Origin: Salinispira sp.
GTDB lineage: Bacteria; Spirochaetota; Spirochaetia; DSM-27196; Salinispiraceae
Assembly (NCBI GenBank): GCA_965602015.1
Contig: OZ271918.1
Location: forward strand, 1,952,001 to 2,016,000
DNA: 64,000 bases
Direction of reading: 5' to 3'
A program made the translations under genes and the position numbers. The notes under the pieces are model-generated. The model was not told the origin of the DNA, did no database searches, and saw only the letters and a list, made by a program, of their open reading frames with translations. This document shows positions 4,583 to 10,582 of the stretch, in pieces (positions within the stretch are counted from its first letter, which is position 1; each line of letters starts with the position of its first letter).

Positions 4583-5824
4583 TTAAAACCGGGGTATACG
4601 GTACTCCTGGGCGGGTTCCAGGGCCACCAGGTGGACAAATTCCCTGGGATAGCGGCGTTGAAGGGATGAAAGGGAACTCTCGACGTTGCGTTCCAAAACC
4701 GCGACCCTGAAGTTTCCCTGGTCGTCGAAATAGGGAAAAAAGACTACCACGTGGTAATGCTGCCAGAGTACCGGGTCCGAGCCGAATTCCCCGTTGATGC
4801 TGCCCAAATATATTTTGCCCGGGTCTCTCAGGGCGAGCAGGTACATAACCGGAATGATATGTTCGACAGCATAGCCGAGGTCTTCCCGATAGCTGTACCA
4901 CGGCAGATGGCGTACGTCTGCAAATTCCGGACTATCCGGTGAGTCCCCCGCAGCGGCAGCCAGGCTGACGGCGATGTTTCTGGTCCAGTCCAGTCCGAAG
5001 TAGGGATCCCGCTCATCCTCATATTCCAGGGAGATATCATTGCCCCGGTATTCGGGGTGCTTTGTTTTTAAAGCCTCAATGCTCATAAATCCGCCGGTGC
5101 GGGCGGCATAAATGCCGTCAGCCAGAAATTTTGCAAATCCCGAGCAATTAAACCCCGGCAGATCGTTGGTCCTGAGGGTTTCGATGCGGACGAGATTGCC
5201 GAATTCGTCCATGGCCCCGTCTTCAGCGTCGGGCAAGGAGGGCAGAACCTGCCGAATCTGGCTAAGGACATCGAGCATGTACCGGTAATCACCAGCTTCC
5301 ACTGCCGGGAAGAGCTGGTCCCAGGCTATAATGCCCGCGGTGAGATCCATGATCCGGTTGATATCCATCCCGATTATCTGCTCAATCGAAACGCCGATGG
5401 GTATTCGCCGGTAAAGCTCGTCATCGAACAGCGAGAGGCTTACCTGACTGCGAAAGCCCATGGGGGCAATGCGAAGCACCAAGGCGCCGATATCGTCCAA
5501 ATAGATCTTAATCTGTTCCACCGCACCATTGTTCAAATCCCGCCGGAGAATGAAATTACCTGAGCTGATAAGGGGGAAGGCGTCATTGCGCTGGTTGAGA
5601 AAAATCAGATAGAGCTTTTCGTCGGTCCGTTCGACTTCGAACTTCACCAGCTTCCGGGAAAACTGATCTTCCATGATGCGGCCCTGGTCAACTCCGATGA
5701 GGGACACCGGTGAAAGCATAAGCTCGCTCAGCCTTCGGCGTACCGTGGAGTTATCGGGAATGGCCCCGGAGAGTGCGGAAGTGACCGTGAGAATCAATAC
5801 TATTGTCAAAGCAAAACGCTTCAT
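4583..5824 (-). CDS. Secreted protein with a putative NlpC/P60-like (papain-fold) Cys-His domain
   Basis: Signal peptide MKRFALTIVLILTVTSALSG; motif GFNCSGFAK resembles the NlpC/P60 FDCSG motif; downstream QHYHVVVF. Confidence 0.6.
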   Translation of the reverse strand: MKRFALTIVLILTVTSALSGAIPDNSTVRRRLSELMLSPVSLIGVDQGRIMEDQFSRKLVKFEVERTDEKLYLIFLNQRNDAFPLISSGNFILRRDLNNGAVEQIKIYLDDIGALVLRIAPMGFRSQVSLSLFDDELYRRIPIGVSIEQIIGMDINRIMDLTAGIIAWDQLFPAVEAGDYRYMLDVLSQIRQVLPSLPDAEDGAMDEFGNLVRIETLRTNDLPGFNCSGFAKFLADGIYAARTGGFMSIEALKTKHPEYRGNDISLEYEDERDPYFGLDWTRNIAVSLAAAAGDSPDSPEFADVRHLPWYSYREDLGYAVEHIIPVMYLLALRDPGKIYLGSINGEFGSDPVLWQHYHVVVFFPYFDDQGNFRVAVLERNVESSLSSLQRRYPREFVHLVALEPAQEYRIPRF

Positions 5825-5836
5825 TGTGATGCCCCT

Positions 5837-7324
5837 TCACGCGTACAGTCCCGGTCTGCCCTGCCTCGCTCCCAGGCGGCGCACAAGCTCGTTTCGGTCC
5901 CGGGCGAACAGCGGACTGATTTCCGCATCGCCGCCGGGCAGGCCCAACCAGCTCGCATGGGTTTTTGCCATATGTGCGGCCAAAAGAGCCGAATCCCATC
6001 GATGAATGCCGTAAAGCGGGGGCATGAACTCCCACCGGTACGGGCGAAAAACCCTCGGCTGTATGCCGCCGGGAAAATGCAGCGCAAGACTGTCGGTAAT
6101 ACCAGTATCGGAGGAAACAAGGGCGGTGTTGATACGGCCCGGGCTGATTTTTCCCGGTTCGGGAAAATCCCGTCGGCGGATTCTGAAGTACAGTTCACCG
6201 GTCATACCGCTTCTCAAGGTGGCCAGCAGACTGCTCTGCCCGCCTGAAAGCAGACGGAGCGCTAACTCTTCATCGGGCAATGGAATGAGCGGATGTTCCA
6301 TGCTGTACACCAGACCGAATCCATAGCCCCGGTCTTCCAGCTGTGACAAGAGGAGTTTTTCCAGGGCAAATACCGCTCCCGCATCGCCGCTGCTGCGGTC
6401 CCGGTAATCCGGCTGAGGAAGCAGCACGACCCGGGATGGGGGCAGCGAAAAGAAATCCCGGTCGCTTAAGAAGGCTAACAGTTCATAAAAATGGGATTTT
6501 CGCACAGTAATCACCCATAGCGGCGGCCTGCCGTAGGCATTTGACGCAGCAATGATGTTTTCCGCCATGTACTCCAAAAGCGGAAGCCGTCTAATTGGGG
6601 TCGCGGGAGCCGAACCAGGGTAGCCGCGGTGAGGGCGGTAGGGGTCGGGGGTGAGAACCAGCCACGTGCCGGAACTCAACAGGGCGTCAAGCTCCCCGTG
6701 TGCCGGGGACTTTTGGGAGGCCGGGGAGATGCGGCCCTCATTGCCCGGACCGTTTGACAGAGATTGGCGCTCTGATGCCCCAATGCCGTCGCTAAGCCTG
6801 TGGTCGATGAAGTGGGCAAGCTCTGTTTCCAGGGCGGAGAAGCTGTCCCCGGGCAATAATCCGTCATCGGAAAAATGACCGAGGGGAGAAAACTCTGTAG
6901 CTGCCCTGTCGGCCCCCGCGTCAGCGCCCCTCAGGGCGGACTGCAGATGCAGGGAGTGCAGGCGGGCGCTCACCCTGGAGCTGTCGCTTTTGAGGGCCAT
7001 CCGGTTCGCCGCCTGCCGGCTTTGCAGCCTGGCCTTCAGCAGCTCGTGGCGAACCTGCATAAACCGTGCGGTACGATCCAGACTCGGCTGTTCGAGCTCG
7101 GCCAGCAGCCGGTCCGAGGCCTCCTTAAGACCGAGCCCCCGGTTTTGCGTCAGGGTGAGAATCCGGGAAAAGAGAAAGACATCTTTGAGGCTGTATATTT
7201 TGCGGCCCCGGTTGTCATAGGCCGTGCTGATAATGGGAAGCTGCTCCTCGATATACCTGATGTGATGAACCTTGCAGTCCAGCACCTGACAGATTTCAGA
7301 GAGCAAAAAGCCCCGATGCTTCAT
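5837..7324 (-). CDS. MerR-family HTH fused to a degenerate UDP-sugar pyrophosphorylase (UAP/UGPase-like) domain
   Basis: N-terminal LSEICQVLDCKVHHIRYIE..RGRKIYSLKD (MerR HTH). C-terminal LLEYMAENI..YGRPPLWVIT..DFFSLPPSRVVLLPQ and WEFMP..EISPLFA parallel UAP-family segments. Confidence 0.65.
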   Translation of the reverse strand: MKHRGFLLSEICQVLDCKVHHIRYIEEQLPIISTAYDNRGRKIYSLKDVFLFSRILTLTQNRGLGLKEASDRLLAELEQPSLDRTARFMQVRHELLKARLQSRQAANRMALKSDSSRVSARLHSLHLQSALRGADAGADRAATEFSPLGHFSDDGLLPGDSFSALETELAHFIDHRLSDGIGASERQSLSNGPGNEGRISPASQKSPAHGELDALLSSGTWLVLTPDPYRPHRGYPGSAPATPIRRLPLLEYMAENIIAASNAYGRPPLWVITVRKSHFYELLAFLSDRDFFSLPPSRVVLLPQPDYRDRSSGDAGAVFALEKLLLSQLEDRGYGFGLVYSMEHPLIPLPDEELALRLLSGGQSSLLATLRSGMTGELYFRIRRRDFPEPGKISPGRINTALVSSDTGITDSLALHFPGGIQPRVFRPYRWEFMPPLYGIHRWDSALLAAHMAKTHASWLGLPGGDAEISPLFARDRNELVRRLGARQGRPGLYA

Positions 7325-8793
7325 TTTCGCCTCGAATCCCTCAACTCGAACTGTATGGGAATCTTGTTGATATGAAAGTCAGTCCTGATACGATTTTTTA
7401 TAAAACCGACGTAGCTTTCGGGAAAATCCTTTTTCCGGTTTACAAAGAGGATGAATTTCATGGGCAAAACGCTCACCTGGGTGATGTACTTCACCTTCCA
7501 GAAAAAACCCTTGCGTGACGGCGGCGGCGTTTGCTCCTGCCAGGCCTTCAGCTTACGGTTCAATAGGCCGGTGTCGACCCGGGTGTACAGCATCCGTTGG
7601 AGCTTGCGGGAAGTGTCGAGCAGTTCTTTGACGCCGCTGCCCTCTTTGGCTGATAGCGGCAGGATCGGCGCGAACTCCAGCACAGGGAACAGGAAGTTGA
7701 TTCGGTCGGTCACCGCCTGAAGCTGATTAGGCAGATCGTCCAGAAGATCCCATTTATTCACCACCAAAATTATCCCCCGTCCCAGCTTTACGACCTGCGC
7801 GGCGATTTTTTTATCCTGATCAGACAGTCCCTTCACCGCGTCGACCATGAGAAAAACCACTTCGGCCTCTTCAATAGCCGATATGGCCCGGGTCACCGAG
7901 TAATACTCCAGGTCTTCATCGACCCGATTTTTTCGCCGGATGCCCGCAGTGTCCAACAGACGATATTTGACTCCATCGATCGAAAAACTGCCCTCGAGGA
8001 CATCCCGGGTGGTGCCGGCTATCTCGCTGACGATGGAATTGCTGCTGTTGGTTAACAGATTGGACAGGGTGCTCTTGCCGGTATTCGGCTGCCCGAGAAT
8101 GGCAACGCTTATATCCCAGGGCTGGCTGGCCCGGCGGTCCGCCCGAACCAGCTTCTCGGCGTCAATAATAATGCCCTCCGCCTCGGCATCCGCCTGGATC
8201 TGAGCGATATCCGCATCCAGCAGGGCTCTCACCCGGCCCCGCAGGTCCTCGATGTCCGAGGTTTTTAAATCCCGATCCCGTATGCGCCGGTGTTCGGCGT
8301 GTTCTATCCGCTTAACAAGCTCCTCGGCCAAGTCATCGACCCCTTCGCCGTGAGTTGCGGAAATGGGATACAGGGTGTCGAAACCGAGGGAGTAGAACTC
8401 GTAAATCATCTGGGCGCGCTTTTCATTATCGACCTTATTGACCGCAAGAACGATTCTGTCAGAGACCTGGCGCAGGCGGCCGAGAAACTCCTCATCCTCG
8501 GGCGTCACTTCCATCACGTCCAGGACGAAGACCAGCACGTCCGCCTGTTCAATGGTTGACAGGCTTTGACTGGTAATCAGAGTGTCCAGGTAATCTTTGG
8601 ATTCGGTGAGGCCGCCGGTGTCGATGAGCATGCACGCACGCCCTTCTATTTCGGTGCGGTGAAAAATGGGGTCCCGGGTGACCCCGGGAGTGGGATCGGT
8701 TATTGCCTTGCGCCGCCCCACGAAGCGGTTAAAAAGCGTTGATTTGCCCACGTTGGGCCGGCCGACAATGGCTACCCGGGGCAAAATTGCCAT
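7321..8793 (-). CDS. der: Ribosome biogenesis GTPase Der (EngA)
   Basis: Two G domains (GRPNVGKS/DTGG/NKVD and GQPNTGKS/DTAG/NKWD) plus a KH-like C-terminus. An upstream TTG at 8844 is an alternative start. Confidence 0.97.
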   Translation of the reverse strand: MAILPRVAIVGRPNVGKSTLFNRFVGRRKAITDPTPGVTRDPIFHRTEIEGRACMLIDTGGLTESKDYLDTLITSQSLSTIEQADVLVFVLDVMEVTPEDEEFLGRLRQVSDRIVLAVNKVDNEKRAQMIYEFYSLGFDTLYPISATHGEGVDDLAEELVKRIEHAEHRRIRDRDLKTSDIEDLRGRVRALLDADIAQIQADAEAEGIIIDAEKLVRADRRASQPWDISVAILGQPNTGKSTLSNLLTNSSNSIVSEIAGTTRDVLEGSFSIDGVKYRLLDTAGIRRKNRVDEDLEYYSVTRAISAIEEAEVVFLMVDAVKGLSDQDKKIAAQVVKLGRGIILVVNKWDLLDDLPNQLQAVTDRINFLFPVLEFAPILPLSAKEGSGVKELLDTSRKLQRMLYTRVDTGLLNRKLKAWQEQTPPPSRKGFFWKVKYITQVSVLPMKFILFVNRKKDFPESYVGFIKNRIRTDFHINKIPIQFELRDSRRK

Positions 8794-8827
8794 TTCTATT
8801 GTGTCGAGTTCGCGAATGAGCGCCTCT

Positions 8828-10582
8828 TTATCCTGTAATGTCAAAACGTTCCTCCATTGCGGCGGCTACGAAGTCGGGAATTCCCTCGGGGTTTTCGAAT
8901 TCCATAACCCTTCCGACGAATTCTTCTGCTTCCAAAATAGATGTCGACCGGATAATCTGCTTGATCCGCGGTATCCCGAAGGAACTCATGCTGAATTCAT
9001 CGAGTCCCAGTCCCAGGAGGATCAGCGTGTATAAGGGGTCGCCGGCCATTTCGCCGCACATGCCCGCAGAAATTCCGGCGTTGTGGGCGTTCTGAATAAT
9101 CATCTTCAGACTGCGCAGGATGCCGAGATGCAGCGGGTCGTAGAGGTATGCCACATGTTCGTTCCCCCGGTCAACTGCCAGGGTGTACTGAATGAGGTCG
9201 TTGGTTCCGATGGAAAAAAAGTTCGAATAACGGGCGAGAATATCGGTGGTCATGGCCGCGCTGGGCACCTCTATCATGATGCCCGTGGGGATATTCGCCG
9301 CGAAGGCTATTCCCTCGTTGCGCAACTCAATCTTAACCGCTTCTATGAGCGCCAGGGCTTCCTTGAGTTCCTGAACACCTGATATCAGGGGGATCATTAT
9401 TCTCAGTTTCCCGTAGACGCTGGCCCTGAGAAGCGCCCTGAGCTGGGTCCTGAAGATATCCACATGAGTCAGACAGAAGCGAATGGCCCTCCATCCGAGG
9501 ATGGGATTTTTTTCTCCGCCGCCCTGCACCTGGAGGCTGTGCATAAGTTTGTCGCCCCCCAAATCGAGGGTCCGGATGGTAACCGGACGGGGGTTCATTT
9601 CCGACAATACCTTTGCATAGGAATCGAACTGTTCATCCTCATCGGGCAGATGATCGGAGCGCATAAAAAGGAACTCTGAGCGGTACAGCCCGATGCCGTC
9701 GGCCCCGTGGGTATCGGCGGCATCCACCTCTTCGGGAAGCTCGATATTTGCCTTCAGACTAATAACCTTGCCGTCCCGGGTTTCCGCAGCCAGCTCATTG
9801 AAGCGCATAAGCTGCATTTCACGCTTTTGCGCGGCGTGATACTTTCTCAGATACTCTTCCCTGGCCTTTTTATCAGGGTCGAGGTAGACCTGTCCTTTGA
9901 ACCCATCGACGATAACGTAGTCGCCGGTGGACACCCGCTCGGTTATGTTGCCCAAGCCCAGCACAGCGGGAATTTCAAAAGCCCGGGCGATAATCGCCGT
10001 ATGGCTGGTCTTCCCGCCGGCATCCATAACGATACCCTTCACCTTCATTTTATCCATGGCAATGGCATCTGAGGGCATGAGATCGTGGCAAACCACAATG
10101 ACTTCCCGGTCGAGTTTTGCCAGATTCACCCGGTCGCGGGACAGGAGATTATTTATTATACGCTTGCCGACGTCATGAAGATCGGCGGTGCGCTCTCTTA
10201 AATAGTCATCTTTTACCGAGCCCAGTTTCTCCACCAGGTCCTGCATGTGGGTGTAAAGCACGAACTCCACATTAAGCAGGTGCTCGTACAGACCCTGTTG
10301 AATTTTATTGCCCAGATCCGGATCGCTGAGCATTAACTTGTGGGTGTCCAGCATCTGCTTTTCCCCGGGTTGCAGGGGAAGTTCGGACTGACTGGACTGG
10401 CTGATTATGCTCTCTATTTCATCGACCGCATTACTGACGGCGGCGTTGAACCGGTCATATTCCGAGCTGACCATCTCTTCATCGATGGCGTACCGGGGGA
10501 TATCCCGCTGCTCCTCTTTTACAAGGAGGACTGAGCACTGCGCTATGCCTGGACTTGCCGGAATTCCCCGTAGTTCTATCAT
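8828..10582 (-). CDS. ptsI: Phosphoenolpyruvate-protein phosphotransferase (PTS enzyme I)
   Basis: GGKTSHTAIIARA phospho-His motif, GIGLYRSEF, FSIGTNDLIQY, CGEMAGD. Confidence 0.97.
   Translation of the reverse strand: MIELRGIPASPGIAQCSVLLVKEEQRDIPRYAIDEEMVSSEYDRFNAAVSNAVDEIESIISQSSQSELPLQPGEKQMLDTHKLMLSDPDLGNKIQQGLYEHLLNVEFVLYTHMQDLVEKLGSVKDDYLRERTADLHDVGKRIINNLLSRDRVNLAKLDREVIVVCHDLMPSDAIAMDKMKVKGIVMDAGGKTSHTAIIARAFEIPAVLGLGNITERVSTGDYVIVDGFKGQVYLDPDKKAREEYLRKYHAAQKREMQLMRFNELAAETRDGKVISLKANIELPEEVDAADTHGADGIGLYRSEFLFMRSDHLPDEDEQFDSYAKVLSEMNPRPVTIRTLDLGGDKLMHSLQVQGGGEKNPILGWRAIRFCLTHVDIFRTQLRALLRASVYGKLRIMIPLISGVQELKEALALIEAVKIELRNEGIAFAANIPTGIMIEVPSAAMTTDILARYSNFFSIGTNDLIQYTLAVDRGNEHVAYLYDPLHLGILRSLKMIIQNAHNAGISAGMCGEMAGDPLYTLILLGLGLDEFSMSSFGIPRIKQIIRSTSILEAEEFVGRVMEFENPEGIPDFVAAAMEERFDITG

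Follow-up and report, generated by a model that had tools for sequence, protein, structure and literature searches.

What role is left to a gene that joins a DNA-binding domain to a sugar-nucleotide enzyme apparently stripped of its active site? The question is raised by one open reading frame of Salinispira sp., found within a window of 64,000 nucleotides (the whole stretch of DNA that was analyzed), in which a MerR-type winged helix-turn-helix (HTH) is followed by a degenerate domain of the UDP-GlcNAc pyrophosphorylase (UAP/NagU) type (Table 1). A reading made from the letters alone, hereafter the sequence-only reading, had proposed a pseudo-enzyme retained as a ligand sensor that links envelope precursor pools to transcription.

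Table 1. Features of the fusion gene, its neighbors and related loci; positions are those of the window unless a locus label is given.
Feature	Position	Strand	Basis or remark
Fusion gene: ZapT-like MerR-type HTH plus degenerate UAP/NagU domain	5837..7324	-	495-aa ORF
MerR-type winged HTH, residues 8-73, ZapT/ihfA-linked subfamily	7106..7303	-	Pfam MerR_1, Foldseek, subfamily scores
Amphipathic helix, residues 83-118, R92 and L95 conserved; candidate ZauP-binding element (predicted)	6971..7078	-	Alignments, tail comparison, complex prediction
Degenerate UAP core, residues ~207-495	5840..6706	-	Alignment and predicted structure
Replaced nucleotide-binding loop: LTPDPYRPHRGYPGSAP instead of LTVAGGQGSRLGFxGPKG	6605..6655	-	Catalytic Arg and Lys gone
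SSGDAG, remnant of PNGHGG; G313 and G316 retained	6377..6394	-	Alignment
SMEHP where intact enzymes read QVDNP	6290..6304	-	Alignment
Site of ~35-40-aa deletion (EKLG...IEYS sugar-binding segment)	6197..6211	-	DNP-to-GSI distance
WEFMPPLY where intact enzymes read EEFAPLKN	6011..6034	-	Alignment; phosphate-binding Lys gone
der/engA GTPase, conserved upstream neighbor	7321..8844	-	Stop overlaps fusion-gene start (ATGA)
413-aa spirochaete-specific protein, conserved downstream neighbor	4583..5824	-	No Pfam family
ZauP/ZapB-like coiled coil and zapA	L213:811-1488 and 1498-1872 (G000:C1:2056312-2057373)		Long acidic tail on coiled coil; behind rplT
Spirochaete-type UDPGP-family enzyme L032	L032:1324-2958 (G000:C1:666409-668043)		Motifs LNGGSATSY, GGHG, GNVDN
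Twelve intact HTH-UAP fusions	L033, L035-L039, L076, L150, L151, L156-L158		All catalytic motifs

The gene sits in a tightly packed operon in the order ptsI, der, fusion gene, the gene of the 413-aa unknown and a TPR protein gene. Der and the fusion gene are translationally coupled within this housekeeping operon through their ATGA overlap, and a same-strand der accompanies the HTH gene in 169 of 170 locus records. Full-length homologues number four to five (46-52% identity), one of them annotated as a MerR regulator in Salinispira pacifica. A frameshift or pseudogene artefact was rejected, because five such full-length homologues exist and their synonymous sites are saturated. The downstream 413-aa protein has a signal-peptide-like start, belongs to no Pfam family and carries a GFNCSGF motif, which we take to resemble a papain-like cysteine nucleophile; its gene still stands behind der even in genomes where the HTH gene is lost.

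In sequence searches of Pfam (PF01704 included), NCBIfam and PDB the C-terminal region had no direct match, and its homology showed up only through relatives and the structural model. A PF01704 search of 301 Spirochaetia genomes recovered the same HTH fused to or beside a complete enzyme with all seven scored motifs, and the intact UAPs at the der locus match human AGX1 at E 1e-63. The fusion protein aligns end to end and collinearly with intact HTH-UAP fusions from the same locus (hhalign probability 97.6 over residues 7-352, HTH included), and a profile of residues ~200-495 from five close homologues matched intact UAPs at E 1e-6 to 5e-13. A word-index search with a broad alignment added one further intact UAP only, and the neighbors in the ESM Atlas were PF01704 clusters (0.90; lead only). 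Computed with nothing but 32 degenerate sequences, the AlphaFold model (mean pLDDT 77) gives residues ~160-495 the fold of a eukaryote-type UDP-GlcNAc pyrophosphorylase, helix 158-176 being what is left of the N-terminal helical domain of UAP. With this model UAP structures were the best Foldseek matches (E 1.4e-11), and VIA structure comparison gave Z 21.3 for UAP (rmsd 4.0 over 289 residues) against 17.2 for UGPase, 16.4 for USP and 13.6 for IspD. The C-terminal domain is thus predicted to keep the UAP fold.

Alignment with intact copies located the losses: GGQGSRLG..PKG reads PDPYRPH..GYPG, so that the glycine-rich nucleotide loop is replaced by PDPY, PNGHGG reads SSGDAG, QVDNP reads SMEHP, EFAPLKN reads FMPPLYG, and KFEMF (KxExF) is gone. 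Moreover DNP and GSI are 71 aa apart in each of the 10 intact enzymes and 31-53 aa apart in all 32 degenerate copies, with 31 aa here; the deleted segment of ~35 residues, common to all 32 copies aligned, holds EKLG and IEYS, and further full-length fusions from a 50%-cluster library carry the same gap. In reading these motifs we assigned catalytic or site roles to R115, K122, Q196, G222, E303 and K455 of AGX1, and we took Q304 and G313 of the fusion protein to be the uracil-contact positions. Two AGX1 papers name N223, N327 and K407 as pocket residues (PMC9105790, PMC7038226). Q304 and G313 are kept here and in all five close homologues, and in only part of the wider family: roughly half of the degenerate copies, of which 32 were aligned, lack the Gln of the uracil site. 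Of the 132 columns invariant across 10 intact enzymes, this protein keeps 31; 20, mostly fold-core residues, survive in half or more of the degenerate set of 32, and no ligand-site or pocket residue is invariant across the 32 aligned copies. Nor is any surface of the dead domain conserved family-wide, with the possible exception of D406 (window ~6107-6109, minus strand), which is Asp in 32 of 32 degenerate copies and Glu in most intact enzymes, and which is possibly an alignment effect or a gained surface residue. By its sequence, the C-terminal domain appears catalytically dead and its sugar-binding motifs are lost.

Much of the sequence-only reading was borne out by these comparisons. Every peptide that it quoted is present; the MerR HTH that it placed at residues ~1-75, with a coiled segment behind, corresponds to MerR_1 at residues 8-73 and a predicted helix at 83-131; the UAP-like C-terminal region is upheld by collinear alignment, profile matches and the model, which has a nucleotidyltransferase fold; and the nucleotide loop and VDNPL (now MEHPL) are indeed replaced. 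Its statement that PxGxG is absent holds for the motif, yet SSGDAG keeps G313 and G316. It had missed the ~35-aa deletion (EKxG...IEYS) and the loss of KxExF and PLKN. The term pseudo-enzyme fits a domain whose motifs are lost, whose fold is predicted to be kept and which is under purifying selection.

That selection was gauged in 22 degenerate pairs, where C-terminal dN/dS was 0.04-0.36 (median 0.21, not the value near 1 expected of a decaying region) and fell to 0.04-0.07 in some genera; three same-genus pairs have saturated dS and the other 19 were chosen for >55% identity, so the estimate is biased low. The C-terminal dN was ~3.4 times that of the HTH (median, degenerate pairs). Among intact fusions the dN ratio was mostly 0.6-1.8, and dN/dS was 0.10-0.26 (30 unsaturated of 66 pairs). 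By these rates purifying selection still acts on the dead domain but is relaxed, and relative to the HTH the domain is less constrained than the intact enzyme.

The HTH is present in 169 of 401 genomes of the class and in 84 of 99 genomes of the order. The fused architecture was followed through 151 loci of 149 genomes, a selection and not a random sample, and four states were distinguished: i) HTH alone (54 loci); ii) HTH beside an intact UAP (7); iii) intact fusion (12); iv) long fusion without UAP motifs (74, spanning more than 10 family codes). Three further loci are cut by contig ends and one has an N run. The intact fusions combine a DNA-binding protein with a probably active UDP-GlcNAc pyrophosphorylase and are arguably the more tractable object. 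Lineages outside this order mostly carry the HTH alone. Of five relatives without an HTH match, four have the gene of the 413-aa protein immediately behind der, and the fifth has a barely recognizable remnant.

Among the 73 distinct closed long fusions, 29 were used to build a profile; 21 of the 44 outside it match at E <1e-3, the best reversed control scoring 9.4 bits. For the 23 that do not match, the UAP origin is inferred from position only. Scores against the intact-UAP profile form a decay gradient from 156 bits down to 0, and the C-terminal regions of different genera have almost nothing in common. Four candidates for intermediates (P0009, P0012, P0023 and P0077) were set aside as they look like truncated or frameshifted intact fusions. 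In a UAP-domain tree (40 rows, quick mode, without AU test) 17 degenerate copies form one clade (SH-aLRT 100); long branches meet there, and single origin is therefore argued from the shared deletion instead. The HTH-only tree (68 rows, 105 columns) is unresolved and cannot order the four locus states.

How the cell could afford to lose the enzyme bears on its UDP-GlcNAc supply. GlmU was not found above cut-off in this genome or in any of 38 genomes checked. A single further PF01704 protein, L032, is encoded in the genome; its motifs look intact, and it is a candidate UDP-GlcNAc pyrophosphorylase of GlmU-less Spirochaetia. In 80 chosen genomes an intact UAP occurs in 22, none of which (0/22) has an L032 homologue, and 42 of the 58 genomes without an intact UAP do have one. 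This distribution suggests that displacement by a second UDPGP-type enzyme freed the UAP domain; the intact-UAP genomes fall in only five family codes and therefore represent few independent events, and 8 of 37 degenerate-fusion genomes have no match to the spirochaete-type UDPGP enzyme, so that displacement does not cover all cases. With these queries, sixteen genomes show neither of the two enzymes, nor GlmU above cut-off (G021, G013, G010, G179, G064, G139, G117, G076, G074, G335, G309, G389, G248, G410, G069 and G328). A diadenylate cyclase gene is found ~5 kb away from L032; all five genomes that were checked encode such a cyclase (lead only).

Pfam MerR_1 matches the N-terminal domain above cut-off (E 2.7e-5), all NCBIfam models score far below theirs, and the predicted model resembles MerR folds by Foldseek, a winged HTH followed by a dimerization-type helix. 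When a standalone spirochaete HTH protein was compared with 72,556 plasmid records, 26 matches were returned; five of the seven inspected, from alpha- and betaproteobacteria, follow ihfA immediately. One match without ihfA linkage was discarded as an unrelated longer MerR protein. The spirochaete HTH profile gave three ihfA-linked proteins 64-81 bits vs 36.5 for the best PDB MerR; reciprocally, a profile of these three ranked the fusion gene top in its own genome (27.1 bits), the other MerR protein there scoring 11.2 bits. In metagenomes 7 of 51 loci were ihfA-linked, and these seven are not independent, because the search pattern came from our own alignment. The ihfA-linked proteins terminate in a leucine-rich amphipathic helix that resembles residues 83-100 here (tail comparison), and R92 is invariant in both alignments examined. 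A Bacteroides protein (L212:2468-2812; 74 bits), probably of the same HTH subfamily, lies behind an M23 peptidase gene rather than ihfA, hinting that ZapT-like proteins occur in Bacteroidota too.

Ozaki et al. 2020 (PMC7188993) define putative ZapT homologues by ihfA synteny plus zapA/zauP. In Caulobacter, they show, ZapT contacts DNA near the terminus, for the most part in the interior of ORFs, and is recovered together with ZapA and ZauP on purification; it thereby ties the terminus to the divisome. ZauP binding was mapped to a leucine-rich C-terminal stretch by Ozaki et al. 2021 (PMC7858052). By subfamily scores and tails the spirochaete HTH is closest to the ihfA-linked MerR proteins and groups with them, the comparison being with these putative ZapT homologues. 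Two features qualify the kinship. The fusion gene flanks der, not ihfA (the single IHF/HU gene found lies ~56 kb off), so that the published synteny of ZapT is lacking; and the HTH of this genus is the family's most diverged (28 bits vs a median of 67; branch length 2.0), with the motif LRYWE turned into IRYIE and its invariant Trp replaced, and may therefore have changed function.

Putative divisome partners are at hand. ZapA is encoded in 164 of the 169 HTH carriers among the 401 genomes, and the five exceptions are genomes 81-92% complete; 139 genomes have ZapA without the HTH, and since ZapA is very common, its co-occurrence among kin is weak evidence. Directly upstream of zapA, in this genome as well, stands a conserved coiled-coil gene that is matched in 55 of 61 genomes; its position and shape make it ZauP-like, and family models match it weakly. 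Complex prediction of residues 1-120 with this coiled coil scored 0.39 in three runs (best control 0.01), which agree in at least 85% of contacts with a partner pLDDT of at least 71. Of 157 solved pairs 116 reach the mark for such scores, as do 2 of 215 mismatched pairs, and the passing scores of 0.60 or below comprise 18 solved pairs and both mismatches; a score of 0.39 lies where predictions are more often wrong than right unless the complex was likely beforehand, and lends the predicted interaction weak support.

Comparison of the copies establishes what any explanation must accommodate: a fused gene whose enzyme domain has lost its motifs together with one shared segment, purifying selection on that domain, and, at the der locus of other Spirochaetia, intact UAPs that are either fused or neighboring. 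We tentatively favor, a little short of calling it probable, a ZapT-type linker between DNA and divisome in which the dead UAP domain, its fold kept, is a non-catalytic protein-binding or scaffold module and not a nucleotide-sugar sensor. The HTH gene and a uap gene would once have stood side by side behind der and then fused; the sugar-binding segment would have been lost in one ancestor, probably after the other UDPGP-family enzyme took over UDP-GlcNAc supply; and later lineages would have retained, eroded or dropped the dead domain. At present the HTH dimer would bind terminus-proximal DNA with little specificity and helix 83-118 would dock on the coiled coil whose gene precedes zapA, so that terminus DNA would be clustered at the Z-ring, the dead UAP domain being carried along as a binding surface. 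A precedent for such a non-catalytic role is S. aureus NagU, a bacterial UAP that binds DacA and still does so as the dead R106A variant (bioRxiv 10.64898/2026.06.23.733835). A bolder extension, which we consider unlikely, is that in Spirochaetia fusing the linker to the UDP-GlcNAc-making enzyme, as in the 12 intact fusions, put synthesis of peptidoglycan precursors at the division site on the terminus, and that in this order the domain has come to serve regulation alone, taking up a uridine nucleotide or a partner (for example a diadenylate cyclase) and thereby tuning chromosome-to-Z-ring coupling to the state of the envelope.

The same linker might instead drag the UAP region along as a functionless passenger, selected only for folding or solubility and slowly lost. 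Conserved residues that are mostly fold core (T225, G265, W270, F292, P350 and G376), nearly unrelated C-terminal sequences between genera, the 54 loci with a bare HTH, the graded decay of profile scores and the loss of the whole gene in close relatives would all fit; yet one stop codon would remove this domain of ~300 aa, which is nevertheless kept at 74 of 151 loci, shows strong constraint in some genera and is shared over the full length by the five close homologues, and we hold a passenger to be possible but rather unlikely. Were the dead domain to bind UMP, UDP or UTP, the linker could gate terminus-divisome coupling by precursor supply. The retained Q304 and G313 and the modeled fold speak for this, and nucleotide-sugar control of division reportedly exists in OpgH; however, the loop that cradles the nucleotide is now PDPY, and with the Gln missing from about half of the degenerate copies and no pocket residue invariant, such gating seems quite improbable.

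It is marginally less credible still, in our estimate, that the protein is a MerR transcription factor whose pseudo-UAP senses UDP-GlcNAc, UTP or sugar-1-phosphate and controls envelope genes, which is where the sequence-only reading parted from the evidence. MerR fold, dimerization-type helix and large C-terminal domain do have the layout of such a regulator, databases annotate homologues as MerR regulators, and the HTH of this genus has diverged from the ZapT-like consensus. But the sugar-binding half is deleted in every one of the 32 copies and the 20 of 132 invariant columns that survive are mostly fold core, which speaks against ligand sensing tied to transcription; the HTH groups with ihfA-linked proteins, Caulobacter ZapT being a terminus binder and not a promoter-bound activator; the gene is embedded in a housekeeping operon and coupled to der; and an HTH without any C-terminal domain, as at 54 of 151 loci, is what most lineages outside the order use. 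Least credible of all, to the point of being highly improbable, is an enzyme with an altered reaction: the fold is kept, and D227, Y229, R230, D314, E343 and H344 at the old site are invariant in the genus, but these polar residues are absent from other genera, and neither the Arg/Lys pair nor the Asp of DNP nor the Lys of PLKN survives.

If the favored linker reading holds, a ZapT-ZauP-ZapA linkage of the terminus is indicated in spirochaetes. The locus also provides a natural series (separate genes, intact fusion, pseudo-enzyme fusion and loss) in which the birth of a pseudo-enzyme is directly testable, and the mutual exclusion of UAP and the UDPGP-type enzyme in 80 genomes names a candidate for UDP-GlcNAc synthesis without GlmU in Spirochaetia. 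In the open-licence PMC papers and bioRxiv searched, neither an HTH-UAP fusion, intact or dead, nor a ZapT-type linker in spirochaetes is described, and nothing relevant was found there on a pseudoenzyme nucleotidyltransferase regulator with UDP-GlcNAc or on the absence of GlmU in Spirochaetia or Borrelia. The main text of the NagU preprint (bioRxiv 10.64898/2026.06.23.733835) names neither spirochaetes nor MerR nor a fusion, and its NagU tree may include spirochaetes. The ZapT-type HTH and the UAP domain are each of a known kind; their combination would be new.

Among known systems, classical MerR activators (CueR, BmrR/Mta, CarH and BrlR) share the winged HTH and long helix, but score at most 36.5 bits, and the fusion protein has no metal-binding or B12 domain. 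GlmR/YvcK, which binds UDP-GlcNAc and regulates GlmS, and OpgH/UgtP, which inhibit division depending on nucleotide sugars, are alike in concept only, in that envelope precursors are linked to regulation or division; their folds are unrelated to the UAP domain, and unlike the fusion protein they have no DNA-binding domain and retain the ligand binding that the dead UAP probably lacks. UAP1/AGX1 and NagU share the fold of the C-terminal domain (Z 21.3), whereas here all catalytic and sugar-binding motifs are lost, ~35 aa are deleted and a DNA-binding domain is fused. From ZapT (CCNA_01434 of Caulobacter crescentus) the spirochaete gene differs in its place behind der, in its fusion to a UAP-derived region of ~350 aa and in the strong divergence of its HTH; it resembles ZapT in its ihfA-linked MerR-like subfamily, in the leucine-rich helix after the HTH, and in a genome that encodes both ZapA and a coiled coil upstream of zapA.
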